Sequence record: OR767160
Reading direction: 5' to 3' (one strand)
DNA length: 50,596 nucleotides
DNA from: Escherichia phage vB-EcoS-XT34
A model generated the notes under the pieces. The model was not told where the DNA came from. It searched no databases and worked only from the letters and a program-made list of their open reading frames with translations. The position numbers and the translations under genes were made by a program. Shown here piece by piece: positions 7,191-45,476 of the stretch (positions within the stretch are counted from its first letter, which is position 1; each line of letters opens with the position of its first letter).

Positions 7191-7683
7191 TATAAATGAT
7201 TACCTTTCATATGATGAGTCAAGCGGCGACCTAATATGGGCATTTAAATTAAGCAGAAAGGTAGTTGTCGGATCGGTAGCTGGATGCAAGTGCAAAAGAG
7301 ATGGTTATATAAAGGTTAGGTTTGAAAATAGGCTTTACTTGGCTCATAGGATTATATGGGAGTCTGTAATGGGGAGAATACCAGAAGGGATGCAGATTGA
7401 TCATATAAACCACAATAGGTCAGATAACAGGGTGGAAAATTTAAGGCTTGTTACGCATATCGAAAACGGCATGAATCAATCAAGGAGCGTTAGAAACAAA
7501 AGCGGTGTAACTGGAGTGTCATGGCAGAGCAGGGATAAGAAGTGGAAGGCGGTAATTTCAAAGGATAGAAAGGCAATCAGTCTTGGGTATTTCAATAACT
7601 TCGATGATGCGGTGGCTGCTAGGCTTAGTGCTGAAATTGAATTTGGTTACCATGTAAACCATGGAAGAAAATTAAAGGTGTAA
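7165..7683 (+). CDS. HNH homing endonuclease with AP2-like DNA-binding domain (copy 1)
   Basis: HRIIWE..IDHINHNRSDNRVENLRLVT motif plus C-terminal AARLSAEIEFGYHVNHG; paralogous to five other copies. Confidence 0.75.
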   Translation: MMENVFMIDINDYLSYDESSGDLIWAFKLSRKVVVGSVAGCKCKRDGYIKVRFENRLYLAHRIIWESVMGRIPEGMQIDHINHNRSDNRVENLRLVTHIENGMNQSRSVRNKSGVTGVSWQSRDKKWKAVISKDRKAISLGYFNNFDDAVAARLSAEIEFGYHVNHGRKLKV

Positions 7684-10794: not shown

Positions 10795-11244
10795 ATGATT
10801 AAGGTTAAGAAAAGTAAATTCTACCCAGGTGATATAGCTGGAACCATTGATGCTGATGGTTATGTGAGGATAACGATAGGTGGAGTGTCTATTCTTGCTC
10901 ATAGGTTTGCGTGGGAATTCGATAATGGAGACATACCAGAGGGAATGCAGATAGACCACAAAAATCACGTAAGGAACGATAATAGGAGGGAGAATCTAAG
11001 GGTTGTTACCCATAAGGATAACGGTAGGAACACGAAAAGATCTGTCAGAAATAGGAGTGGATGTGTAGGTGTTTATTGGTATGAGTCAAGGTCTAAGTGG
11101 TGGGCTTTCATTGGAAACTCAGGAAAGGGAGAGAGGAAATCACTAGGCTACTTCTCTGATTGGTTTGACGCGGTTTGCGCCAGGAAATCAGCCGAGCTCA
11201 GGCTTGGATACCATGAAAACCATGGTAAGATAGACATCAAATAA
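10795..11244 (+). CDS. HNH homing endonuclease with AP2-like domain (copy 2)
   Basis: HRFAWEF..IDHKNHVRNDNRRENLRVVT and WFDAVCARKSAELRLGYHENHG; inserted between terminase and portal genes. Confidence 0.75.
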   Translation: MIKVKKSKFYPGDIAGTIDADGYVRITIGGVSILAHRFAWEFDNGDIPEGMQIDHKNHVRNDNRRENLRVVTHKDNGRNTKRSVRNRSGCVGVYWYESRSKWWAFIGNSGKGERKSLGYFSDWFDAVCARKSAELRLGYHENHGKIDIK

Positions 11245-19656: not shown

Positions 19657-22566
19657 ATGACAGATAAATTTGCAGGGCTATCGCTTGGGGTTGACATATC
19701 CCAGGTTGATGCGGCGGTTAAATCTCTGGATGACTTATCCAGGGCGAACAACACAGCCGGAAAGAGCTTTGACAATTTCATTGATGCTGAGCAAGTAGCA
19801 AAGCAGAAGATGAAAGAGTTCAACAACGAGGTTAAGCGCCAGAAGAAAGAATTTGCCGACGTAGAGAAAGCCATTGATCCTACAATCGGAAAAATGCGCC
19901 AGTTGCAGAAGGCGAGCGTTGACCTGGATAACCTCTGGAGTAAAGGCCTAGTTCCAGACGCCGAGTTCTTCAATCTGTCAAGCATGATTGAAACTCAGAT
20001 CAATGCGCTTAACCGATCCAAGATGGCGCTTACCGAAGAAGGCCGTGCGGCTATGGCTAACTCAAAAGCCAAAGAGGCGGCAACAAAGGACGCTGACAGG
20101 TTCCTTAAATCACTGCAAGAACAAGCTAACGCTGCGACAATGACCAAGACTGAGCTTCTCGAATTGAAGGCGGCACAGCTTGGCGTATCGACTCAGGCCG
20201 CACCTTTAATTGCAGCGATGAACAAGCAGACTGTAGCGACAAATGCGGCTGGCCTTTCCGCTGGCGAGTACAAGAACGCGCTGCGCATCTTGCCAATGCA
20301 GATCACTGACGTTGTTACCTCCCTTGCTTCCGGTATGCCTGTATGGCTGGTTGCAATCCAGCAGGGCGGGCAGATCAAGGATTCGTTCGGCGGTGTTGGG
20401 AATACGTTTAAAGTTTTGCTTTCTTACCTTAATCCGGTAACGGTTGGTATGGGCGCTATGGGTATCGCACTTGCTGGCCTTGCTAAAGCTGGTTACGACT
20501 CCTACCGATCCATCACTGACATGAAAAATGCCTTGATTGAGACTGGCGGATTTGCAGCAGCGAGTGCGGCAGACCTTGACCAGATCGCAATCAAGATTGC
20601 GGATACTGGTAACGCGACTATCGGAACCGTCCGCGACATCGCTACTGAGCTTGCTAAGAGTGGGAAATATACTCAGGAACAAATCAGGAATATCACCCGC
20701 GCTACCGCTGAATGGTCAGCCGCTACAGGCCGAGCATCAAGCGATATTATTAAGGATTTCGACAAGATTGCAGATGATCCGGTAAAAGGTCTGGCTAAAC
20801 TTAATGAGCAGTACAACTTCCTTGAGAAAGGTCAGTTAACCTACATTAACGGCATCATCAAAACGAAGGGCGAAACCGAAGCTGTGACAGCGGCGACTAA
20901 ACTGTTTGCCGACACCATGGAAGAACGAATGAGCAAGATTGCAGATACTGCAAGCCCACTTGAAAAGATGTGGACTGACATTAAGAAATGGTCATCCGAT
21001 GCCTGGGGTTGGGTTGGCGATCATACGCTTGGTGCTCTAAACCTCATCATTGACGTGGTTAGCGGCACGGTGATTCAGGTAAAAATGATTCTCGCTAAAG
21101 GTGACGAATACATTTCTAACTTTATCGCATCGGCAATCAAGGCAACGCAGAGCCTGCCAGGTATGAGCGATTTCGGTAAGGACATTCTCGCAGAGCAAGA
21201 ATCAATTGTTAAAAACTCAAAAGAAACATACGACGGATTAGCAAGGGATCTTGATTCAATCAATGCGCGGGTTGAAAAGGGCGAGATGGGATACGTTGAT
21301 GCACTTAAGACTCGGCGCGACCTGCAAAAGCAATACAGCAAAGAAACAAAAGATGCTGTAGAGAAGGAAGCGAAAGCCATTGAGGAACAGAACAGGAAGA
21401 AGGCAAAGAGCACGAAGGGGGACATCACAAAAGGTGCGACCGAGCAGCTTGATAAAGAACTGTATGTTCTCAAGGCACAGCTTAAAGTTTTGGAAGATCA
21501 TAAGTCGATTAACGACAAGATCTCAAGCCAGCGTCGGGCGCTGTGGGCGACTGAGGCTCAAATCTCAATCCTACAGGACGCGCAAAGCAAGCGTAAACTG
21601 ACCAACGAGGAAAGGGCATTGCTCGCCAGTCAGCAAAAGGTGCTTTCGTTAGCGAAGGAGAAAGCTGAGCTTGGCGATCAGATTGTTAAGCAGGAGCAGA
21701 TCAATAAACTGAATGACGACTCAATGAAGTTTATCATGCAGATTGACGCAGCGAGTAAAAGCCTTAACGCAACGCGCGCAATGGGTACTATTGAGGCAGA
21801 GCGACAGATTCAGCTTGAGAAGATCCGAGCGGAGTACATGGCGAAGGGAGGCGGTCAGGATGATGAGGCTCTCAAGGAAATGATTGACAAGCAGAACGAG
21901 TATTACGCCAACGAGGATGAGAAGCGTGGAGACTGGCTTGCTGGGGCGCAAAAAGCATTTTCTGACTACGGCGAAAGCGCAATGGATATGTACGGAAACG
22001 TAGAAAACATCGCAAGCAACGCCCTGAATGGTTTAACAGACATGATGACCGAGTTCTTGATGACGGGCCAGGCCAACTTTGCAGACTTTGCAAAAAGCAT
22101 TATCAGCCAGATCATTAAGATGATCACGCAGATGGTAATCTTTAACTCACTGTCAGGGATGGGCGTCGGCAGCGGTAAGGGGTTCTCCTTCGCTAATTCA
22201 GGTTGGTTCGCCACTGGCGGCTACACCGGAGATGGCGGTAAGTACGAGCCAGCAGGAACGGTTCATAAGGGTGAGTTTGTCATGACCAAGGAAGCTACCA
22301 AGAGAATTGGCGTCGATAACCTTTATCGAATGATGCGCGGTTATGCGAATGGCGGCGTGGTTGGTGGAACTTCAAGCGGTGGCGGCGGTAGTGCAATCAT
22401 GGCTGGCGGCGTGACAATCGGAAGTATCCCTGTTAGCATCAATAACGGTAGCGATCCGAAGGGCATGGAGCAGGGCGTGAAAATGATTTTCAAGCAAATG
22501 ATTCAGGAATCATGTTCCCAGGGTGGCGAAGTTTACAATTACATCAACGGAAAAGCAGGAGCGTAA
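19657..22566 (+). CDS. tail tape measure protein
   Basis: 969 aa, long predicted coiled-coil regions, Gly-rich C-terminal part, position after G/GT. Confidence 0.85.
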
Positions 22567-22616
22567 TAAATGGCCCTAGACGTGTTCAAGTGGTGCGTAC
22601 AGGTTCAGGATGGTGG

Positions 22617-22715: not shown

Positions 22716-22796
22716 TTCAAGCAAATGATTCAGGAATCATGTTCCCAGGGTGGCGAAGTTTACAATTACATCAACGGAAAAGCAGGAGCGTAATAA

Positions 22797-23144
22797 ATGG
22801 CCCTAGACGTGTTCAAGTGGTGCGTACAGGTTCAGGATGGTGGCGGTGTAATGACCGTCACTAATAATGACAGGCAGGTGCAGTTTGGCAATGGATTCCG
22901 CCAGGTTGCATCGTCTGGCTATAACACTGAGCGACGAGAGTACGCAATCAGTTACGTTGGCAAGGACTGGAAAGAAGTGCGCGAGTTTTTGCGATCGCAT
23001 AGACTGAAAGCCTTTGCCTTTACCCCACCGGAGGACAAGATCGGCGTCTTCCTATTGAAGCCGGACACGCTGAATACTCAGCCAATCGGTCGTGGTCTTC
23101 TTGTTGTAAAATGCACCATTGTAGAAGCCTTCACAGCGGTGTAG
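22797..23144 (+). CDS. minor tail protein (lambda M-like)
   Basis: 115-aa ORF immediately after the tape measure gene; a duplicate start at 22570 lies in the pre-gap copy. Confidence 0.55.
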   Translation: MALDVFKWCVQVQDGGGVMTVTNNDRQVQFGNGFRQVASSGYNTERREYAISYVGKDWKEVREFLRSHRLKAFAFTPPEDKIGVFLLKPDTLNTQPIGRGLLVVKCTIVEAFTAV

Positions 23145-23993: not shown

Positions 23994-24479
23994 ATGATTA
24001 ACTGGCATGATTACTTTAAGTACGATAACGGGGTTCTGATTAACATAAAGAGCAGGAATGGGGCTAAGTATATGCAGCAAGCGGGGAGGAAAAATAAATC
24101 ATCAGGCTACATTGAGGTGATGGTTAATTATAAGCGGTATCAGGCGCATAGGACTGTGTGGGAAATGAATCATGGTAAAATTCCAGAAGGAATGGAAATA
24201 GATCACATAAATGGGATTCGTGATGACAACAGAATTGATAACCTGAGGCTTGTCACAAGCAGAACAAACGACACAAACAGGGCTAAAAGCAAGGCCAACA
24301 CAAGCGGTGTCGTTGGTGTTTGCTGGGATAAAAGAAAAGGTTTATGGTTGGTTAGGATTTACGACAACAAGAAACCAGTTTTCGTTGGTTACTTTCGTGA
24401 ATGGTTTGATGCTGTATGCGCGAGAAAGTCATCGGAAAGGACTTATAATTATCATGAGAATCACGGGAGAGCGAAATGA
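23994..24479 (+). CDS. HNH homing endonuclease with AP2-like domain (copy 3)
   Basis: HRTVWEM..IDHINGIRDDNRIDNLRLVT and WFDAVCARKSSERTYNYHENHG; inserted between the L-like and K-like tail genes. Confidence 0.75.
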   Translation: MINWHDYFKYDNGVLINIKSRNGAKYMQQAGRKNKSSGYIEVMVNYKRYQAHRTVWEMNHGKIPEGMEIDHINGIRDDNRIDNLRLVTSRTNDTNRAKSKANTSGVVGVCWDKRKGLWLVRIYDNKKPVFVGYFREWFDAVCARKSSERTYNYHENHGRAK

Positions 24480-25864: not shown

Positions 25865-28800
25865 ATGATTAAAAATAATGTAGTGACGGGCCGAAAGGGT
25901 GGCAGCAGCAAGCCGCATACCCCACAGGAGATGGAAGATAACCTGATCTCAATCAACAAGATTAAGGTTTTGCTCGCCGTTAGTGATGGCGAGGTTGATG
26001 ATAATTTCTCATTAAAGGACTTGTATCTTAATGATGTTCCTGTAATTGCACCTTCCGGAGAGGTTAACTATGAAGGCGTAAAAGCTGAGTTCCGCCCAGG
26101 TACGCAGACACAGGATTACATCAAAGGCTTCAACGACACGGCGGCTGAGTTCACTGTTGGTCGTGAATTGAAAACAACGACTCCTTACGTGATCTCGGTA
26201 ACGAATAAGCAGCTATCAGCAGTCCGCGTAAAAATCCTGATGCCTCGCGGCGTTACCACGAAAGAAAACGGCGACATGGTTGGCGTGGTCGTGAAGTGGG
26301 CCGTAGATATGGCGGTTGATGGAGGGAGCTACCAGGAGGTTTTATCTGACGTCATCGATGGTAAGACGATTAGCGGATATGACAAGACAAAGCGTATTGA
26401 CTTGCCGTCGTTTAATAGCCAAGTCCTGCTTCGGGTTCGTCGTGTTACTCCTGATTCGAATAATGCAAGAGTTGTTGATGCGATCAGCATTCAGTCATAT
26501 GCGGAAGTTATTGACGCTAAATTCCGTTATCCTCTGACTGGTCTTGTTTACGTTGAGTTTAACAGCGAGCTGTTCCAGCAGATCCCAAGAATTAGCACGA
26601 AAAAGAAATGGAAGCTCATCAACGTTCCGAGCAACTATAATCCAGATCTTCGCGAGTATAACGGCACGTGGGATGGTAGCTTTAAAAAAGCATGGTCAAA
26701 TAATCCGGCGTGGGTGCTTTATGATTTGATCACCAATCAGCGCTACGGACTCGACCAACGGGAATTGGGGATTGCAGTTGATAAGTGGTCACTATATGAC
26801 GCTGGTCAATACTGCGACCAGAAAGTGCCAGACGGTCACGGCGGAACAGAACCTCGCTATCTTTGCGATGTGGTTATTCAATCTCAGGTTGAAGCGTACA
26901 ATCTGGTGCGAGATATTTGCTCAATATTCAGAGGGATGAGCTTCTGGAACGGCGAGAGCCTTTCAATTGTCATCGACAGACCTAGAGAGGCGTCGTATAT
27001 TTTCACTAACGATAACGTCGTTGATGGCTCATTTGCCTATACGTTCGCAAGTGAAAAAAGCATGTACACAACCTGCAACGTCACGTTCGACGACGAGCAG
27101 AACATGTACAGCCAGGACATTGAAGGGGTATTCGACCTTAACGCCTCATTACGCTTCGGTCATAATCCGACAAGCATCACGGCGATCGGGTGTACTCGAC
27201 GCAGTGAAGCGAATCGACGGGGCCGTTGGGTTCTCAAAACAAACCTTCGCAGCACGACGGTGAGTTTTGCTACTGGCCTTGAGGGTATGATTCCGATGAT
27301 TGGCGACGTGGTAGCAATCGCTGATAACTTCTGGTCAAGTAACCTGACGCTTTCGTTATCAGGTCGTGTGATGGAAGTGTCAGGCCTGCAAGTGTTCACA
27401 CACTTTAAGGTCGATGCGCGCGCTGGTGATTTCATTATCGTGAACAAGGCTGACGGAAATCCGGTGCGCCGGACGATTTCAAAAGTTTCTGCGGACGGGA
27501 AAACCATTGAGCTTAACGTTGGATTCGGTTTTGATGTTCAACCCAACACAGTGTTCGCAATCGACCGCACTGATGTGGCCTTGCAGCAATACGTTGTAAC
27601 CGGAATAACGAAGGGCGACGGAGACGATGAGTTCACGTACAGCATTACGGCAGTTGAATACGATCCGAACAAATACGACGAGATTGACTACGGCGTAAAT
27701 ATTGATGACCGACCAACCAGTATTGTAGATCCTGACAACATGCAGCCACCTAAAAACATTGTCGTTTCATCATACTCTAGAATTGTGCAGGGAATGAGCG
27801 TAGAAACAATGGTGGTAGGATGGGATAAAGTTCAGTACGCAAGCAAGTACGATGTGCAGTGGCGAAAGGATAACGGCAACTGGATGAACGTGCCGCGCAC
27901 AGCAAGCTCAGAGGTTGAAGTGGAAGGTATTTATGCGGGTAATTATCACGTACGCGTAAGGAGTATCTCAAGCGGTGGAAACACGTCTCCATGGTCTGAA
28001 GTTGTCAGCGTCGGATTGACGGGTAAGATTGGGAAGCCAGATAAACCAACAGTCATAACTGCATCTGACGACCAGGTGTTTGGGATACGGGTTAAATGGG
28101 GATTCCCTGAAGGCTCTGGAGATACCGCGTACACTGAGTTGCAGCAGATACCAGATAATGGAGCCGGAGGTCACACAGGCGAGGAGAATGCAAGCCTGTT
28201 AACAATGATACCATACCCTCAGTACGAGTACTGGCACTCTACACTACCGGCAGGATATGTGAACTGGTACAGGGCAAGATTGGTAGACAGGATTGGTAAC
28301 GCCTCTGACTGGTCTGACATTGTTCGCGGAATGGCAAGCGATGACGTTGAGTCAATAATTGGAGAAATAAAGGTTGATATCGAGAATTCCGAGGGGTTTA
28401 AGTACCTACAGCAGAACGCCATTGAGTCAAACGGAGCTATTCAGGCGCAGGCGGAATCAATTCTTGAAAACGCACTTGCAAACGACACTGACGTGCGACG
28501 AATGACCAAGGAAAACGGCAAGCGTAAGGCTGAATACGTTAAGGCGGTGAATCTTATTGCTGATGAAACTCAGGCTCGCGTAGAGGCTCTCACGCAGCTT
28601 AAAGCACAGATTGATGATGAGGTTGTAGCTTCCATAACTGAAGTTCAGACGGCACTAGCCACCGAAACGGAAGCTAGGACTACTGCCGACACTGCTTTAA
28701 GCGCTCAGATTGGCGACACGCAGGCCGCACTGAATGAAAAACTTGACTCATGGGTAGATGCAGAATCAGCTGGCGCTCAGTACGGCGTTAAATTGGGCCT

Positions 28801-29230
28801 CAAATACAATGGGGTTGAATATAGCGCAGGGATGAGCATGGAACTTGTTGGCACTGGTGGGAATGTTCGCAGTCAATTCATTTTTGACGCAAACAGATTC
28901 GCGATCAGTAACGGTATTGGCTCTGGTTCCGGTCAGTGGCAGCTCCCCTTCGTTGTAGAGAACGGAAACGTAATCATCCAAAGCGCGGTAATTGGCGATG
29001 GATCAATCAGCAACGCGAAGATTGGTAACTTCATTCAGTCCAATAACTACGTAGCTGGAAGTACGGGATGGAGGATTGATAAGTCTGGTAACGCTGAGAT
29101 TCGAGGTAAACTGTACGCCAGCAGTGGTGAATTCGCCTTCAACGGAACAAACAATACGGTACAGATTAACGGAAACGGAATCACTGTTAACTTACCAGGA
29201 GGAGGAAGAATTGTTGTGGGTACGTTCTAA
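25865..29230 (+). CDS. central tail fiber / host specificity protein (lambda J-like)
   Basis: 1121 aa, last and largest gene of the tail module. Confidence 0.8.
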   Translation: MIKNNVVTGRKGGSSKPHTPQEMEDNLISINKIKVLLAVSDGEVDDNFSLKDLYLNDVPVIAPSGEVNYEGVKAEFRPGTQTQDYIKGFNDTAAEFTVGRELKTTTPYVISVTNKQLSAVRVKILMPRGVTTKENGDMVGVVVKWAVDMAVDGGSYQEVLSDVIDGKTISGYDKTKRIDLPSFNSQVLLRVRRVTPDSNNARVVDAISIQSYAEVIDAKFRYPLTGLVYVEFNSELFQQIPRISTKKKWKLINVPSNYNPDLREYNGTWDGSFKKAWSNNPAWVLYDLITNQRYGLDQRELGIAVDKWSLYDAGQYCDQKVPDGHGGTEPRYLCDVVIQSQVEAYNLVRDICSIFRGMSFWNGESLSIVIDRPREASYIFTNDNVVDGSFAYTFASEKSMYTTCNVTFDDEQNMYSQDIEGVFDLNASLRFGHNPTSITAIGCTRRSEANRRGRWVLKTNLRSTTVSFATGLEGMIPMIGDVVAIADNFWSSNLTLSLSGRVMEVSGLQVFTHFKVDARAGDFIIVNKADGNPVRRTISKVSADGKTIELNVGFGFDVQPNTVFAIDRTDVALQQYVVTGITKGDGDDEFTYSITAVEYDPNKYDEIDYGVNIDDRPTSIVDPDNMQPPKNIVVSSYSRIVQGMSVETMVVGWDKVQYASKYDVQWRKDNGNWMNVPRTASSEVEVEGIYAGNYHVRVRSISSGGNTSPWSEVVSVGLTGKIGKPDKPTVITASDDQVFGIRVKWGFPEGSGDTAYTELQQIPDNGAGGHTGEENASLLTMIPYPQYEYWHSTLPAGYVNWYRARLVDRIGNASDWSDIVRGMASDDVESIIGEIKVDIENSEGFKYLQQNAIESNGAIQAQAESILENALANDTDVRRMTKENGKRKAEYVKAVNLIADETQARVEALTQLKAQIDDEVVASITEVQTALATETEARTTADTALSAQIGDTQAALNEKLDSWVDAESAGAQYGVKLGLKYNGVEYSAGMSMELVGTGGNVRSQFIFDANRFAISNGIGSGSGQWQLPFVVENGNVIIQSAVIGDGSISNAKIGNFIQSNNYVAGSTGWRIDKSGNAEIRGKLYASSGEFAFNGTNNTVQINGNGITVNLPGGGRIVVGTF

Positions 29231-29233
29231 AAC

Positions 29234-29256
29234 AAAAGCCCCGAAAGGGGCTTTAT
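29234..29256. terminator. bidirectional terminator between convergent genes
   Basis: aaaagcccc-gaaa-ggggcttt with A and T tracts on both sides. Confidence 0.6.
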
Positions 29257-29258
29257 CT

Positions 29259-30203
29259 TTAATACATATCTGGGAGGTAAGGTAGTGGCGTTGATATTGT
29301 TACGTCAGGTCTGTTTCCGATCTCATATCTTACAATCCTCGATCCAGTTCCTGAGCGAACATAACCATTGCTCATCACGACTCCCTTGTTCCTTAACTCC
29401 TTGTAAGCCCGTATTGCTCTTGTGTTAAATCCACACCTGAGTATTGGGAAGTAAGATTCACCAATGTATTGATTGCTACCTGATAGGTTTATGAATCCAG
29501 AAACAACCAATGGCCTCGTAACGGTTGATAATGTGCAAACACCATTTGAGTTAAATATGTTCAGTCCAGGACCAGGGGTTGGAGCGACCATCTGGAAGAT
29601 AATCAAATCCATAGTGACACTTCCTGGTGTATCACCAGTATCTTCAGTGTTTATGTTTGTACATATCAGCTGGTTACTACCATTGTATTCAACTGATACA
29701 CCTGAGTTATTCCACTTTCCAAATGGTATCCCATAAATTGGAAGGGTGTATGTATTGGTGAAAGATATCCTCTGAGCAAACTTGCATACCAATAGCCTAT
29801 CAGTAGTGGTTATCGAAGTAAAATCAGTACTATTCGCAACATAAATACCCTGTCCCGTAGATGCTCTTAGTACCTCAATAACAGTACCAGAAAATTGAGT
29901 TATACGGTCAGAATATCCATTCTCATATCCAATCGATATTGTTCCGCTTGATGCTGTTGACGAGAATCCATTTATGTAATAAATCTCAACCCCTCTATCA
30001 AGTTCGAATGAGTATGCACCATTGTTAGGGATTAGGAACCTTGAAGCTCCTTCATTACCCTGAATTGAAAAATTTTTGCTAAATCCACCACTGGATACGT
30101 TGAAATTTCCAGCGAAATTCAATGCCCGCATCCCTGCGGTTATTGTCATTGGCTTTCTTCCGTCATTGAGGTCTATATAAATACCTTGAGCCATTAATTC
30201 CAC
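29259..30203 (-). CDS. candidate receptor-binding or tail-tip accessory protein
   Basis: 314-aa Gly/Ser/Thr/Asn-rich ORF co-transcribed downstream of a lipoprotein gene and convergent with the J-like gene. Confidence 0.4.
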
Positions 30204-30424
30204 TCCTTAGAACCATAATCACGAACAGAGCCACTGGAACCTTTAATACCATCGTAGCGAATGTCAATTTCACCAGCCGCAACAACTACGCCATCTTTCC
30301 ATTTAGATACGCACACGCCGCTTGAGGACGTTGCACACCACCCATCAGGGCGAGGGCCAGAAGAACAACCAACTGTCATGATCAATGCTGCTGCGATGAT
30401 TGCCGATTTGATTAAGTTAGTCAT
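30194..30424 (-). CDS. small lipoprotein, candidate superinfection-exclusion protein (Cor/Llp-like)
   Basis: 76 aa, signal peptide with lipobox LIMTVGC-S, driven by a box-type element. Confidence 0.55.
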
Positions 30425-30464
30425 TTTGTTTTCCTTAGTAAGTATTTTTCGTTTCGATGAAGTA

Positions 30465-30508
30465 ACTATACATGCAACTATCGTCGGAGTCTTTAACTAT
30501 TCGTGCTA
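30465..30508 (-). promoter_or_regulatory. box element variant (TAGCACGAATAGTTAAA) plus TATAGT and TTCATCGAAACGA leader, leftward
   Basis: read on the minus strand upstream of the lipoprotein gene; spacing and leader match the + strand boxes. Confidence 0.45.
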
Positions 30509-30585
30509 TTGTATACACGTAACCAATGTAACTCGATGTATACAATCCCATCCGCGAGAAATGATATACGCACTGTTACGCCAAT

Positions 30586-30670
30586 TTACGCAATGGTTAC
30601 ATTAAAATATCTATATATATCAACCTTTTACTCTTATTATTATTATTATATATATTAATGTGTATATCAT
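30586..30670 (+). repeat. AT-rich element shared with 251-350
   Basis: 26-nt core TTACGCAATGGTTACATTAAAATATC, one mismatch to the copy at 251-276, followed by TATATAT and (TTA)n tracts. Confidence 0.7.
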
Positions 30671-30880
30671 GTAACTACTTCTATAGAGTGTTCCGCTTAT
30701 AAATTTCTAATATGTACATTTATACAGTATTTAATCACAAGCATACCAATGCACCCTCCGCCAGAAGCGATATACACTATATACACGCTATTTACATCTA
30801 GCTATAGCTGGGCAGGATAGCCATTTTATGTAACTAGCTCCAATGTATACACATGATTACAGATACATGCACGTAACCTA

Positions 30881-30908
30881 TTGACTAATGCAACAAGTCG
30901 CGTATAGT
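30881..30908 (+). promoter_or_regulatory. candidate sigma70 promoter for the recombination module (TTGACT-16-TATAGT)
   Basis: -35 TTGACT at 30881-30886, -10 TATAGT at 30903-30908, then CATCAACAACGAACGAGGA leader and ATG at 30942. Confidence 0.5.
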
Positions 30909-30941
30909 TACCAGCATCAACAACGAACGAGGATTAAATAG

Positions 30942-32753: not shown

Positions 32754-33200
32754 ATGCCACACGTAATCACTGGTCAGATCCGTAAAGCACCATTCACCAA
32801 AGAAGGCAGCAACAATAACGGGCGTTGGAAAATGTACGCCGTCGAACTTTCAGAGCGAATGAAGATTCGAAATCAAAATGGAGAGGATGAGGCTGTTTAC
32901 AGCAACTACCGCGCCACGTTCTTCGCAAAAGAAAACGTTATGCAGTGGTATGATGAAGCGTTCCAGGAAGGTAAGGTTGTATCAATTTCTGCCGACACAC
33001 TTCACTTAGCATCGCGCCAGGGAAATGACGGTACTGTGTATGTGACCGCCGAAATGATCCGTCCTCAGTTGCAATTCAGCCAGCGTGAGCCAGCGCAGCA
33101 GAGCCAAGGCCAGCAGCAGCAACGCCAGCAGCCTCAGCAGCAACAACTCCAGCAACAACCGCAGCAGCAAAACCAGTTCGATGATGACATCCCGTTCTGA
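32754..33200 (+). CDS. ssb: single-stranded DNA-binding protein
   Basis: 148 aa, Gln/Pro-rich linker and acidic C-terminal tail ending DDDIPF. Confidence 0.8.
   Translation: MPHVITGQIRKAPFTKEGSNNNGRWKMYAVELSERMKIRNQNGEDEAVYSNYRATFFAKENVMQWYDEAFQEGKVVSISADTLHLASRQGNDGTVYVTAEMIRPQLQFSQREPAQQSQGQQQQRQQPQQQQLQQQPQQQNQFDDDIPF
33092..33175 (+). repeat. CAG/CAA-rich low-complexity repeat encoding the SSB poly-Gln linker
   Basis: repeated cagcag/cagcaa units. Confidence 0.6.
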
Positions 33201-33210
33201 TATAAAAGAT

Positions 33211-33234
33211 AAAGCCCCTTTAGGGGCTTTTTTA
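33211..33234. terminator. bidirectional terminator between SSB and tailspike genes
   Basis: aaagcccc-ttta-ggggcttt with flanking A and T tracts. Confidence 0.6.
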
Positions 33235-35517
33235 TTAACCAATAACTGACATTCTTGAGTTGGCAAATGTATAAGCATCAGTTTTGTTAGGGAACTGAGC
33301 CAGGAAGTAATCACTAATCCTTACAACACCACCATTAGTTGACTGGAAACGAAGCCTTGCCGTTCCTGAAATAGATGCCTGGCCAACTCCATATGTATGA
33401 ATCCAGTTACCATTAGGCTTGGTATAAATCTCTCCAATAAGGATTGAATCAGCAACTGCAGCTGAAACATCCCCACTAACAACTTTAAGACTACAACCCC
33501 ATACAACCTGGTAATACTGAGCAATGTTGGCAGTTGGAACATCTAAATACAGAGTGTATCCTGCAGGAATCGATAGCTGAGCGCAGCTGTCACTAAGAAC
33601 GCCATCAGCAACAGCTGTTGCATCAACAGTTCCCGTGCCCAAAAATCGCCACGGACCAGCGTCAGAGAACGTCTTGGCATGTAAAACGCCGCCAACAGAT
33701 GACCTTCTAATCCTGCCCTTAATATCTGTAGCTCTTACACTTGCGCTCAATCCTTGACTTAGTGGGAATGAGTTATCAGCTATAGACTCAACAAGTATGT
33801 CACCACCTACGTAACCGCCGATTATCAAATCTCTGGCTATTAACCTGCTACCAGCGTCAATACTAATATCGTAAACACCTGATGCATTATCAATTCGACA
33901 GTTTTTAGTTAGAAGGGTTGAGCCTTTTAACTCAATGTTGTTTAAGTAGCAATTTTCAGCAACAACCATTGGCATATTCTCTAATTTTAGCTGTCTTGGT
34001 TTCTGCGATACGCCATCAACAATAACAGCCTGTTCAGTCGCAACTCCCTCAAGCCATACGTTTGAAATTGTTGGAGTAACAGTGGGTGTAACACCATTAC
34101 CTTTAAAGTAAATCCCACCGCCAGGGCAAGCCTCAAATGTACAATCCCTTATAGATACCCCATCAACCCCACTACCCTGCAAAGACCCACCAAGTGTTGA
34201 GCCATCAATGTAAATACCGTAAGTGTGAATGCCAGCAAAGTGGCAGTCCCTCCATGTATCACTACCAGTGTGCATTGCAACGTCCGATCTTGCTATGTGT
34301 CCATAGTTACACTCAAGGTAACTACAATGTTGGTAAGTGTTACCAATGTTTCCCTTTGGTTTCCTTAAGCCTATATCAAGGCTATCGAACGCAATATGAT
34401 CAAAGTTCCATCTGCCATCAGTATTAGACTGACCGAAAGTTATGCCGATGCCATCCCTTGTACCAATCTCACCTTGAATAAGGAAGTTTGAGGCGTGACG
34501 ATACTGCCACAACCTTGATGACTCAGTAAGAGTAAAGCTTGCCTGGTTGGGTCCTGGGTTGAACCTTGCTCCGTAACCTACACCAATGAGGTTAGCACTC
34601 CCAGAATAATACTCACCAGTGTAAATACCACTGGTGATAAGCATGTCGTTACGCTCTTCAGTTGAGTTTATCGCAGTCTGAAAGTCGGCGTAGTTACCAG
34701 ACCTGTTAATATCATTAATGTTCTGAGTTAGAGTCCTCTCACCAATCCTTACATTGTCACCACCAGATGAAGATAAAAGCTGATCCCTTAATGAGTTATC
34801 GCCAACGGCAACCCATGCGCCTGGAGCTACACCACCAGTTGATTCTGGAGTTGAATTTTCTGGTATTGTCTTTGGTAATGGGCCATTCCACAAATAAGAT
34901 GAAACATCATTACCATTAAAATAAAAAACCTGCTGAGTTTTTGATTCAATTGTCCCGCCACCATCAAATGATAACACAAGAGCGCCAGAAACTGAGTTTG
35001 CAGCGTTCTGAGCTACTCCGGCAAAATAAGAAGAACTATTTGCCTGCTCTGTAGCTATATCTTTATCAGATGAAACCTGGATGGCATCAGCAGCAACCTG
35101 CGCAGCATCAGTGACAACTTGCTGATACTGAGTGTTTACCTGATTTACTTCTTCCTTGAACTTAACACCATCAAACTGATTGAATGCATCAACTGCCTCA
35201 GCAACCTCAGTTTCACGAGATTGGTAGTAACGCAATGTTTCAGCCACATCCTGAGCCAACCCCTGGACGGTAATACCATCGTGAGCAAGAATTGAGTATT
35301 GAGTTCCGGTTGGTGCGGTAAATCCTTTGTCGTTAAAAACTCGAATTTCTGTATCGCTGATAATTTCAGCAATCGTAACAATGCTTGCTGGCGTGGTATT
35401 GAAAATCATTGTTGCTCCAACGCGAATTAGCGTTAGTGGTTGACGCCAGGTAGTCCCAACGCCGTTAACTGTACCATCTGCCGCTAAAGAGGCAGTTCCT
35501 GCATCATAAATAGCCAT
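33235..35517 (-). CDS. tail fiber / tailspike with probable beta-helix domain (candidate depolymerase)
   Basis: 760 aa, Gly/Ser/Thr/Asn-rich repetitive composition with interspersed Cys motifs such as CTFEACPGGGIYFKGNG. Confidence 0.55.
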   Translation of the reverse strand: MAIYDAGTASLAADGTVNGVGTTWRQPLTLIRVGATMIFNTTPASIVTIAEIISDTEIRVFNDKGFTAPTGTQYSILAHDGITVQGLAQDVAETLRYYQSRETEVAEAVDAFNQFDGVKFKEEVNQVNTQYQQVVTDAAQVAADAIQVSSDKDIATEQANSSSYFAGVAQNAANSVSGALVLSFDGGGTIESKTQQVFYFNGNDVSSYLWNGPLPKTIPENSTPESTGGVAPGAWVAVGDNSLRDQLLSSSGGDNVRIGERTLTQNINDINRSGNYADFQTAINSTEERNDMLITSGIYTGEYYSGSANLIGVGYGARFNPGPNQASFTLTESSRLWQYRHASNFLIQGEIGTRDGIGITFGQSNTDGRWNFDHIAFDSLDIGLRKPKGNIGNTYQHCSYLECNYGHIARSDVAMHTGSDTWRDCHFAGIHTYGIYIDGSTLGGSLQGSGVDGVSIRDCTFEACPGGGIYFKGNGVTPTVTPTISNVWLEGVATEQAVIVDGVSQKPRQLKLENMPMVVAENCYLNNIELKGSTLLTKNCRIDNASGVYDISIDAGSRLIARDLIIGGYVGGDILVESIADNSFPLSQGLSASVRATDIKGRIRRSSVGGVLHAKTFSDAGPWRFLGTGTVDATAVADGVLSDSCAQLSIPAGYTLYLDVPTANIAQYYQVVWGCSLKVVSGDVSAAVADSILIGEIYTKPNGNWIHTYGVGQASISGTARLRFQSTNGGVVRISDYFLAQFPNKTDAYTFANSRMSVIG

Positions 35518-39174: not shown

Positions 39175-39653
39175 ATTGGAATGATGTTTTCGAGTACGTA
39201 GAAGGAAAGATTTTCTGGAAGGATAGTGGGAAAGGTAGGAAGTCTGGTGCTGAATTTGGTTGCATATGCAATACGTGGGGTTATGTTATTGGCACCCTTA
39301 GAGGAAGGACTGTTAGGGCCAATCGTTTAATATGGGAGATGCATAATGGGCCAATACCAAACGGAATGCAAATTGACCACATCAATCACATTAGGCATGA
39401 TAATAGAATTGAGAACTTGAGGCTTGTTAGTAATCAGGAAAACAGCAAAAACAACTCAATGCGAAAGAATAATACTTCTGGAGTTACAGGTGTTTGCTGG
39501 AATAAACAAAAAGGAAAGTGGATGGCTAAAATAAAAGTTGATTACAAAACCATAAATCTTGGTTTGTATTCAGACATTGAAAAGGCCGTGGAAGCAAGAA
39601 AGCAAGCTGAGGAATTATACGGTTTTCATGAAAATCACGGGGTTAATTTATGA
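39171..39653 (+). CDS. HNH homing endonuclease with AP2-like domain (copy 4)
   Basis: NRLIWEM..IDHINHIRHDNRIENLRLVS and EARKQAEELYGFHENHG. Confidence 0.75.
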   Translation: MNWNDVFEYVEGKIFWKDSGKGRKSGAEFGCICNTWGYVIGTLRGRTVRANRLIWEMHNGPIPNGMQIDHINHIRHDNRIENLRLVSNQENSKNNSMRKNNTSGVTGVCWNKQKGKWMAKIKVDYKTINLGLYSDIEKAVEARKQAEELYGFHENHGVNL

Positions 39654-40139: not shown

Positions 40140-40643
40140 ATGAAATGGAGAAATCGAATACAATATAAAGATGGTTCACTTTACTGGCTTGAGGCGAAAG
40201 ATAAAAGCAAATCATTCAATCATCGACTTTCTGGAAAGAAAATAGGAACGGTTATGAAGGATGGTTACATGAGATTCAGGTTTAATGATAAAGCATACTC
40301 ATGCAGCAGGGTGACGTGGGAGTACTTTAATGGAGAAATTCCTATCGGAATGGAGATTGATCATATAAACCATATAAGAGATGATAACAGAATTGAAAAT
40401 TTAAGATTGGTATCAAGATCTGATAATCAAAAAAATCTAAGTATATCAAAAAACAACAAATCAGGAGTAACTGGCGTCACATACCATAAACCTTCTGGTT
40501 TATGGTCCGCCAGAATAAACTCTGGAGGAAGAAGGTTTGAGCTTGGCTACTACAAAACCATAGAAGAAGCAAGGTTGGCAAGAATTGATGCTCAAAATGA
40601 ATTTGGTTTTCATGATAATCATGGAAAGAAAATAAAAAATTAA
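40140..40643 (+). CDS. HNH homing endonuclease with AP2-like domain (copy 5)
   Basis: SRVTWEY..IDHINHIRDDNRIENLRLVS and EARLARIDAQNEFGFHDNHG. Confidence 0.75.
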   Translation: MKWRNRIQYKDGSLYWLEAKDKSKSFNHRLSGKKIGTVMKDGYMRFRFNDKAYSCSRVTWEYFNGEIPIGMEIDHINHIRDDNRIENLRLVSRSDNQKNLSISKNNKSGVTGVTYHKPSGLWSARINSGGRRFELGYYKTIEEARLARIDAQNEFGFHDNHGKKIKN

Positions 40644-42403: not shown

Positions 42404-42557
42404 TGCGCTGCTTAATTCCAGTATTATTACCGCCGCTAATTGGTTTTATTATCATCTACCTACTAACACGATAAGGATTTACAAAAATGGCTATTCAGAA
42501 GATTAGTGACGAACAATTCATTGCTGAGCGCGAAGCTGGTAAAACACTCCGCCAGAT

Positions 42558-42656: not shown

Positions 42657-42713
42657 CCGCCGCTAATTGGTTTTATTATCATCTACCTACTAACACGATA
42701 AGGATTTACAAAA

Positions 42714-43856
42714 ATGGCTATTCAGAAGATTAGTGACGAACAATTCATTGCTGAGCGCGAAGCTGGTAAAACACTCCGCCAGATTGCCCAGGAATACGGG
42801 ATGAACATTCGAACTGTTGAGCAGCGCTCAAGCCGCCTGGCAAAGCGCGGTGAGTTCCACGGGAATAAACACGTAAGCGTACACGTGCCAGAGGGCTTTC
42901 AGGTTAAAGGCACGTCAACCATGATTCGCGCTGACGGTTCCGAGGTCGTGCGCTGGGTTAAGACCGATCAGGACAAGGAGAAATTAGCCGCCATGATGGA
43001 TGCTGCTATTGAAGCATTCTGTGACGAACTCCCGCGCGCAGCTCCTCAGCCTATTCTTGGCGAGCCTCACTATGATGAGAATCTCCTGGCCCTGTATCCA
43101 GTTTTCGATCTCCACATCGGAGCAATGGCCCACAAGCATGAATGCGGCGAGAATTACAGCACCGACATCTCTGAGAAAGTTCTCAAGAACTTCTTTGATT
43201 ACTCGGTTGGTGTATCTCCTAAAGCAAAGAAAGCCGTATTGCTAATCGGCGGTGACTTCCTTCACTCAGACGGCCTGGACGCTGTAACGCCTGCAAGCGG
43301 TCACGTACTGGATCAGGATAGTCGATACGCCAAGCTAGTTCACGTTGCAATCCGTTCCGTACGCCGCGCGGTGGCGCTAATGCTGGATAAGCACGAAGAG
43401 GTCGAAATCCAGATCATTGAAGGTAACCATGACCAGGCTGGCATGATTTGGTTGCGTGCAGCAATGGCGGCATACTTTGAAGATGAGGCGCGCGTAACGG
43501 TTGATACGTCTCCTATGATTCTTCACCGTACAAAGTGGGGCAAAACATTGCTTGGATACACTCATGGTCACACCATGAAGAAAGCTGATACTCGACTGGC
43601 GGCAATGGCGACTGACTTCCGCGAAGAGTTCGGTACGAGCAAGTATATTTACACGCATAGTGGCCATTGGCACCATCAGACGATCACGGAAGGAACTTTG
43701 GGGATTGATGAGGTTCACGGTCAGCTTGGCGCGAAAGATGCATATGCGGCGCGCGGCGGTTGGCGCTCATATCGCCAGGCGGCGGTAATTGTCTACTCCA
43801 AGGAGTTCGGCGAAGTCGGTCGCTTCGTTTACCGTCCTGAAATGAGCGACATCTGA
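42714..43856 (+). CDS. HTH-containing calcineurin-like metallophosphoesterase
   Basis: N-terminal HTH-like LRQIAQEYGMNIRTVEQR; phosphoesterase motifs DLHIG, GGDFLHSD, GNHDQ; a duplicate start at 42487 lies in the pre-gap copy. Confidence 0.55.
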   Translation: MAIQKISDEQFIAEREAGKTLRQIAQEYGMNIRTVEQRSSRLAKRGEFHGNKHVSVHVPEGFQVKGTSTMIRADGSEVVRWVKTDQDKEKLAAMMDAAIEAFCDELPRAAPQPILGEPHYDENLLALYPVFDLHIGAMAHKHECGENYSTDISEKVLKNFFDYSVGVSPKAKKAVLLIGGDFLHSDGLDAVTPASGHVLDQDSRYAKLVHVAIRSVRRAVALMLDKHEEVEIQIIEGNHDQAGMIWLRAAMAAYFEDEARVTVDTSPMILHRTKWGKTLLGYTHGHTMKKADTRLAAMATDFREEFGTSKYIYTHSGHWHHQTITEGTLGIDEVHGQLGAKDAYAARGGWRSYRQAAVIVYSKEFGEVGRFVYRPEMSDI

Positions 43857-44949: not shown

Positions 44950-45476
44950 GCCCCGTGATTTTCGTGAAAGCCTAGCTCCATCTCTGCGGCTTTTCTAGCT
45001 AAGACTGCATCATCGAATGAGTCTCCGTAGTAAAGCCGCTTATTCTTGCCATTAATTTTTATCTGAGAGAACCATTTACCCCTTGCTGAGTCCCAGCACA
45101 CACCAACGACTCCGGATGTATTTAAAGAAGACATTGGCATGTTCATTTCCTGATCAGACCTTGATGCCAGTCTTAGGTTTTCAATTCTATTATCATCCTT
45201 AATGTGGTTTATATGATCGATCTCTATACCATCAGGTATCTGGCCTTTGTGCATTTCCCATATAATCCTATGCACCTTCCTGTACCTGTTGTTAAATCTA
45301 ACCAATAGGTATCCATGTTTATCTGGAGTTCCAACCATTTTTCCGGCATTTCTTGAGTTGTACTGATTGCTCATGTCATCACGACGCTTCCTCCATAAAT
45401 TATTTCCGTCATAATGAAAGTATTTTGACCAGTTCATGTATACTATCCTCTCTAGTTTCATTTCATCAACAATCAT
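44946..45476 (-). CDS. HNH homing endonuclease with AP2-like domain (copy 6)
   Basis: HRIIWEM..IDHINHIKDDNRIENLRLAS and FDDAVLARKAAEMELGFHENHG; on the opposite strand, between endolysin and spanin genes. Confidence 0.75.
   Translation of the reverse strand: MIVDEMKLERIVYMNWSKYFHYDGNNLWRKRRDDMSNQYNSRNAGKMVGTPDKHGYLLVRFNNRYRKVHRIIWEMHKGQIPDGIEIDHINHIKDDNRIENLRLASRSDQEMNMPMSSLNTSGVVGVCWDSARGKWFSQIKINGKNKRLYYGDSFDDAVLARKAAEMELGFHENHGA

Follow-up and report, generated by a model that had tools for sequence, protein, structure and literature searches.

The genome of Escherichia phage vB-EcoS-XT34 (sequence record OR767160; 50,596 nucleotides, analysed at its full length and referred to here as the window) carries two leftward-transcribed genes beyond the 3' end of its J-like tail gene that very probably encode a receptor-binding protein for LptD and an exclusion lipoprotein that blocks LptD, acting by the mechanism described in related phages. 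The lipoprotein gene (30194..30424, minus strand) is an orthologue of Rtp45 of phage Rtp, and the receptor-binding protein gene (29259..30194, minus strand) encodes a DUF6453 protein of the LptD type. With 98% identity of the latter protein to its Bas02 counterpart and 85.5% identity of the lipoprotein to Rtp45, a common mechanism is the best explanation for the pair, and it is by this homology that LptD binding and exclusion are predicted for vB-EcoS-XT34.

Pairs of this kind have already been characterised genetically and by cryo-EM in close relatives, and the present analysis offers nothing new beyond Maffei et al. 2021 and Dunbar et al. 2025. It does mean that the terminal receptor of the phage can be called from its sequence, and because LptD is essential and conserved the assignment is relevant to host-range prediction, to ideas of phage steering and to the construction of phage-resistant production strains. 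The locus is also one more case in which the J C-terminus, a receptor-binding gene and an exclusion gene have moved together between Drexlerviridae lineages.

The predicted receptor-binding protein gene and the lipoprotein gene

Mechanical prediction calls an open reading frame at 29259..30203 that encodes 314 aa from a GTG codon at 30203, which is the length adopted in an earlier description of this DNA made without database searches (the sequence-only reading). The GTG is situated inside the AAGGAG Shine-Dalgarno sequence of an ATG codon at 30194, and the equivalent Met (MAQGIY...) is the start in all of the annotated orthologues (Rtp, JeanPiccard and P818) and in the solved homologue. The real start is therefore the ATG at 30194, and the protein is 311 aa long. 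It is rich in Gly, Ser, Thr and Asn, as that reading had it, with these four residues accounting for 38.9% of the total.

The 311-aa protein matches the Pfam family DUF6453 (PF20051) with 396 bits (E = 1.3e-118; cut-off 25), and the match spans residues 4-291 on profile positions 1-290 of 291. It is 98.1% identical to bas02_0024 of JeanPiccard over 311/311 aa, and its identities to the proteins of P818, Rtp (Rtp44) and ESCO41 (gp54) are 97.7%, 79.7% and 39.8%. Among PDB sequences it aligns with chain C of 9RPT, 9RPW and 9RQI ('Tail fiber protein', the receptor-binding protein of Oekolampad) with E = 1.2e-40, residues 1-311 lying on residues 1-321. Oekolampad (Bas18) belongs to Dhillonvirus and its receptor-binding protein is only about a third identical, with N- and C-terminal motifs that are shared (MxxGIxIDxNDGR ... 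P.L..P.MY). Proteins have been classed as LptD-type when they share >30% identity, at approximately full coverage, with members whose LptD receptor was assigned by experiment (preprint 10.64898/2026.04.02.716166), and the 311-aa protein falls within this class, being 98.1% identical to the Bas02 protein and aligning over its full length with that of Oekolampad.

Structure prediction, which the sequence-only reading had named as a way of checking the protein, gave an AlphaFold2 model with a pLDDT of 87 and a pTM of 0.87 from a 35-sequence alignment; the model is all beta, without predicted helices. When the model was compared with 350,542 PDB chains using Foldseek, 9RPT_C was the sole match with E <= 0.001 (E = 1.8e-17; TM-score 0.72 by query and 0.88 by target, the comparison covering the resolved part of the chain). 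The 311-aa protein is thus a member of the same family as the Oekolampad receptor-binding protein and has the same predicted fold.

The lipoprotein gene is preceded by a ribosome binding site (AAGGA at 30436-30432) and encodes a 76-aa precursor, as had been proposed from the sequence, whose signal peptide has one basic residue in its N-region, a hydrophobic core and a lipobox, and satisfies the PROSITE-type lipoprotein pattern. From the open reading frame listing and the lipobox pattern, the mature part comprises 57 aa beginning at Cys20. The mature N-terminus is CSSG, with Ser and not Asp at the +2 position, and under the established Lol sorting rule a lipoprotein with Ser at +2 goes to the outer membrane. 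PF24052 (Phage_lipoprotein) is the sole family reported in a Pfam scan (122.7 bits, E = 6e-36; cut-off 27), and among PDB sequences the protein matches 9RPS chain D ('Phage lipoprotein', which is Rtp45) with E = 7.7e-42, residues 1-76 aligning on residues 1-76. It is 90.8% identical to the P818 lipoprotein, 85.5% identical to both Rtp45 and the JeanPiccard protein, and 75% identical to ESCO41 gp53. Cys20, Cys30 and Cys38 are all kept relative to Rtp45, and the seven differences among the 57 mature residues include positions 33 and 34, which take part in strand pairing with LptD. Rtp45 is said to have been given a resistance phenotype in the 2006 study of Rtp by Wietzorrek et al. A disulfide between Cys30 and Cys38 is present in the Rtp45 structure (PMC12685063), and by analogy we infer acylation of Cys20 and a Cys30-Cys38 disulfide in the vB-EcoS-XT34 protein.

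Database labels point elsewhere: on that view the lipoprotein would act in lysis, as the outer-membrane component of a spanin, or be a generic moron, and the 311-aa product would be a 'membrane protein' without a part in adsorption. Small outer-membrane lipoproteins of phages are often o-spanins, the PHROGs matches for the gene pair are phrog_4281 and phrog_1265, of which the latter is labelled 'membrane protein' and placed in the category 'moron, auxiliary metabolic gene and host takeover', and RefSeq also calls the homologues 'membrane protein'. The phrog_1265 label is uninformative, however, and the database labels look automatic, whereas the structures of 2025 give the family another role. 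The all-beta model without predicted helices has a solved receptor-binding protein as its sole fold relative, the locus lies at the tail-tip gene, and an orthologue of the lipoprotein has been solved on LptDE, such that we regard a lysis or moron function as extremely improbable.

LptD as the predicted receptor

No receptor could be assigned to AugustePiccard (Bas01) and JeanPiccard (Bas02) with knockout strains (Maffei et al. 2021, PMC8594841), and spontaneous E. coli mutants resistant to these phages have small deletions in the extracellular loops of LptD (PMC8594841). The lptD loop deletions delta(Y658-Y678) and delta(L394-V396) block both phages. In the same study the terminal receptor is predicted by allelic variants downstream of gpJ, each with a cognate exclusion gene, and LptD is inferred as the receptor of Rtp (PMC8594841). 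Four unrelated families at the locus downstream of J correspond to the receptors FhuA, BtuB, LptD and YncD, and the C-terminus of GpJ carries LptD-specific sequence features; AugustePiccard additionally needs NupG besides LptD, via a J domain (preprint 10.64898/2026.04.02.716166).

Cryo-EM of LptDE with the Oekolampad receptor-binding protein shows deep insertion into the open LptD barrel, with an interface of ~1,700 A^2 (Dunbar et al. 2025, PMC12685063). In the complex of LptDE-LptM with Rtp45, the lipoprotein lies between LptE and LptM, where the outer membrane meets the periplasm, with a hairpin reaching up the lumen, and extracellular loop 4 of LptD is shifted by up to 20 A, an arrangement that is incompatible with the receptor-binding protein (PMC12685063). 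Expression of the Rtp44-type receptor-binding protein failed and it has no solved structure; Rtp44 shares 33% identity with the Oekolampad protein (PMC12685063), so that the structural evidence comes from a relative that is ~33% identical.

The gene pairs Rtp44/Rtp45 of Rtp and bas02_0024/bas02_0025 of JeanPiccard are the closest parallels, with the same two Pfam families, the same gene order, the same one-base overlap and the same convergence on J, and both also have a box-type unit upstream and the three lipoprotein cysteines seen here. The most probable scenario by homology with these phages is that the all-beta 311-aa protein would be a dedicated receptor-binding protein located at the tip of the J-like central fibre, which would bind LptDE, the lipopolysaccharide translocon, at its extracellular face as the terminal receptor and insert into the LptD barrel. 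The 76-aa precursor would be processed to a 57-aa outer-membrane lipoprotein (acylated at Cys20, with Ser at +2 and a Cys30-Cys38 disulfide) that would bind LptD from the periplasmic side between LptE and LptM, with its hairpin pushed up the barrel lumen. Extracellular loop 4 would then be displaced, and the receptor-binding protein of an incoming phage, or of progeny encountering cell debris, could not bind; the outcome would be superinfection exclusion together with protection of the progeny. The proposal in the sequence-only reading, that the receptor of the receptor-binding protein is blocked by a small lipoprotein encoded next to it, is well supported by homology to Rtp45 (in its LptDE complex) and to the JeanPiccard and Oekolampad proteins, from which the same activity is predicted here.

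That reading had reached its proposal by comparison with the llp-oad pair of T5 and with the Cor proteins of T1-like phages, and the comparison raises the question of whether the pair could serve another receptor (FhuA, BtuB, YncD or other) in the manner of T5 Llp/pb5 or T1 Cor. The locus downstream of J does hold alleles for several receptors in Drexlerviridae, the systems used for the analogy are FhuA systems, and there is a weak BLASTP match of the lipoprotein to T1 Cor (E = 2e-5). However, this match covers residues 1-56 and its identities fall mainly in the signal peptide and lipobox, the aligned mature residues having little in common. The receptor families at the locus are mutually unrelated, and the 311-aa protein belongs to the LptD family (98% to Bas02 and full-length on 9RPT_C) and has no similarity to T1 ST31 in direct comparison. 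The lipoprotein gives no alignment with T5 Llp by BLASTP at E <= 100, the best BLASTP match of the 311-aa protein to T5 pb5 has E = 0.71 over 30 aa, and no pb5 entry is present among the Foldseek PDB matches listed. With a lipoprotein that is 85.5% identical to Rtp45, which has been solved on LptDE, a receptor other than LptD is very unlikely.

The logic in T5 is the same, in that a tail-tip receptor-binding protein (pb5, encoded by oad) is accompanied by an adjacent gene for a small periplasm-facing lipoprotein (Llp) and the same receptor is inactivated. The receptor is FhuA in T5 and predicted to be LptD here; T5 Llp acts allosterically over a long range, whereas Rtp45 displaces loop 4 sterically (PMC12685063); and llp and oad of T5 diverge from separate promoters, whereas the genes here form one overlapping operon. 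T1 cor occupies the same neighbourhood, between J and the recE, erf and ssb genes, and encodes a small lipoprotein of ~75 aa annotated as superinfection-exclusion, but the T1 genes downstream of J (ST32 and ST31) are co-directional with J and unrelated to DUF6453, and cor is separate and convergent. Homology of the mature lipoprotein to Cor (of T1, N15 or phi80) was rejected, given that the match is mainly to signal peptide and lipobox and that PF24052 is the only Pfam family, and homology to T5 Llp and pb5 was rejected by BLASTP for both proteins and by the Foldseek matches listed for pb5. On sequence grounds, the pair would work like Llp/pb5 yet belongs to the Rtp45 and DUF6453 families, and its members are analogues, not homologues, of T5 Llp/pb5 and T1 Cor. 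What stands of the suggested likeness to llp-oad and Cor is therefore the functional logic, and not the homology, the gene layout or the receptor, which is predicted to be LptD and not FhuA.

Operon layout and the upstream box unit

The termination codon of the lipoprotein gene and the ATG of the 311-aa gene share one base (TAATG), which favours co-transcription and coupled translation, in agreement with the leftward co-transcription that had been proposed; we thus consider the two genes to be one operon. The J-like gene (25865-29230, plus strand) encodes 1121 aa and converges on the receptor-binding gene, the end of J (29230) and the stop of the receptor-binding gene (29259) being separated by 28 nt. 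A hairpin terminator, AAAGCCCC-TTTC-GGGGCTTT, occupies positions 29235..29254 between the convergent genes and is flagged on both strands in a terminator scan. Its 61-nt context folds with -20 kcal/mol, and against shuffled sequence the z-score is -5.3 for the minus strand and -3.0 for the plus strand. Leftward transcription has a good T-run (TTTTGTTTT), that of the plus strand, on the J side, being weaker, and the hairpin is plausibly bidirectional. Convergence with J on a common terminator had been noted in the sequence-only reading, and it is borne out here apart from the weaker T-run on the plus strand. The order of J, receptor-binding gene and lipoprotein gene is common to Rtp, JeanPiccard, ESCO41 and P818.

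We note that a near copy of this hairpin (89% complementary) is present at 33201-33237 and is also situated between convergent open reading frames. These are a 148-aa Q-rich frame in the position of the single-strand-binding gene (ending at 33200) and a 760-aa minus-strand frame in the position of the lateral tail fibre gene (ending at 33235).

A promoter-like unit lies upstream of the operon at 30449..30509 on the minus strand, from which both genes would be transcribed leftwards together, with termination at the hairpin common with J. It is composed of the box ATAGCACGAATAGTTAAA (30509..30492), the hexamer TATAGT (30470..30465) and CATCGAAACGA (30459..30449). The box has two mismatches to the consensus box of the window, ATAGCACGAATTGCTAAA, which contains the dyad TAGCA-N5-TGCTA and is present in 16 copies at up to four mismatches. 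Twelve of these are on the plus strand (at 1698, 2455, 4350, 5713, 6342, 25843, 31979, 35542, 39031, 40066, 41616 and 43856) and four on the minus strand (at 30509, 48513, 50106 and 50577). Most boxes are followed on their 3' side by ~19-22 nt of variable sequence, a TAnnnT hexamer, ~5 nt, CATCRAAACGA, a ribosome binding site and an ATG; the variable stretch is often hairpin-forming, and in some cases has T-runs and is terminator-like. The centre of the box is ~42 nt upstream of the inferred start site, which is the position of a class II activator site. A scan for consensus sigma-70 promoters found none on the minus strand near the lipoprotein gene. A TTGCTA within the box is ~22 nt from the -10 hexamer, too distant for a normal -35 element, and was rejected as such. 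In Rtp, JeanPiccard, ESCO41 and P818 the lipoprotein gene is likewise immediately preceded by a box unit, also where a further gene lies ahead of the unit, and the box-type element recognised in the sequence-only reading is thus a conserved feature of the locus.

The boxes precede the small open reading frames at the left end, the erf-like gene and the minus-strand genes at the right end, and the head and tail block (~9.1-25.8 kb) is without them, apart from a single copy that lies 4 nt ahead of the J ATG. This placement makes expression with the non-structural class of genes plausible and, going by the box positions, the lipoprotein gene may plausibly be expressed early or with that class. 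A literature search for Drexlerviridae transcription timing found no relevant data.

The window lacks a third gene upstream of the lipoprotein gene, in which it differs from JeanPiccard, ESCO41 and P818. The indel that separates the window from ESCO41 and P818 (30510-30514) is exactly at the 5' edge of the box, and at this site ESCO41 has a Rha anti-repressor gene and P818 has a 222-aa open reading frame; the gene upstream of the JeanPiccard lipoprotein gene codes for a Dcm-like methyltransferase. A speculative and rather unlikely interpretation is that the box units are mobile promoter cassettes comparable to the PeSL (promoter-early stem-loop) elements of T4-type phages, which would subject the operon for exclusion and receptor binding to an early or middle programme that depends on an activator, and serve as recombination joints for swapping accessory genes beside the cassette.

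The lipoprotein and recE-like genes diverge from a 517-bp intergenic region (30425-30941) that is AT-rich and has many short inverted repeats. The motifs TGTATACA, ATATACRC and ATGTAAC cluster within it, and TGTATACA and ATATACRC are enriched, outside the proximal promoter unit of the operon. A sigma-70-like promoter (TTGACT-16-TATAGT) at 30881-30908 is positioned for the rightward exonuclease gene. The region upstream of the lipoprotein operon also contains one copy (30578-30648) of a 71-nt direct repeat (82% identity) that ends in an (ATT)n-like run, the other copy being at 243-313.

Mosaic origin of the cassette and wider distribution

The window is a ~50.6-kb Drexlerviridae genome whose best overall relatives are the Nouzillyvirus phages ESCO41, P817, 50EP and P818, whereas Rtp and JeanPiccard, which provide the closest parallels to the gene pair, are members of Braunvirinae. 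The backbone is thus of the ESCO41/P818 type, and the cassette is a mosaic insert (~28842 to ~30284). In a 100-nt identity profile the sequence changes from ESCO41-like to Rtp/JeanPiccard-like at ~28842, and equal similarity to both is regained at ~30284, inside the lipoprotein gene. Over its whole length the J protein shares 95% identity with that of ESCO41, but in the last ~200 aa it is closer to Rtp43 (92-95%) than to ESCO41 (78-81%), and the 3' end of the J-like gene (28842..29230, plus strand; the C-terminal ~130 aa) has been co-inherited with the cassette. Read from these identity shifts, a cassette of ~1.45 kb has been exchanged that runs from the J C-terminus through the terminator and the receptor-binding gene into the 3' part of the lipoprotein gene. 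The same mosaic is seen in P818. The allele of ESCO41 itself also belongs to DUF6453 and PF24052, and the exchange was therefore between two LptD-type alleles.

This mosaic matches the horizontal transfer of receptor loci already described. The transfer of the J C-terminus with the cassette fits docking of the receptor-binding protein on the J C-terminus, which, from the layout, would be its likely docking site, and it also fits the presence of LptD-specific features in the C-terminus of GpJ (preprint 10.64898/2026.04.02.716166).

Among other repeated sequences in the window, there is an 88-nt family (64-73% identity) located in small open reading frames at 7370-7457, 10925-11012, 24172-24259, 39346-39433, 40330-40417 and, on the minus strand, 45146-45263. 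These may represent multiple paralogous genes for homing endonucleases of the HNH type, dispersed over the genome and also within the tail block. Two perfect 128-nt direct repeat pairs with 227-nt spacing are present at 22489-22616 and 22716-22843, and at 42430-42557 and 42657-42784, the first pair being at the end of a 969-aa open reading frame (19657-22566) in the position of the tape-measure gene; these could be either genuine tandem duplications or artefacts of the assembly.

Homologues of the Rtp45-type lipoprotein, with 45-58% identity in the mature part, are found in phiEco32-like podoviruses of the Gordonclarkvirinae (Bas92 among them), in Klebsiella phages and in the temperate phage mEp021, and Bas92 has a partial DUF6453 match as well. 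This is a hint that LptD use and exclusion may extend beyond the small siphophages. Long bacterial contigs (E. coli, Salmonella, Citrobacter and Enterobacter) also encode DUF6453 proteins with 34-64% identity, presumably within prophages, and temperate phages may thus carry the same LptD-type module.
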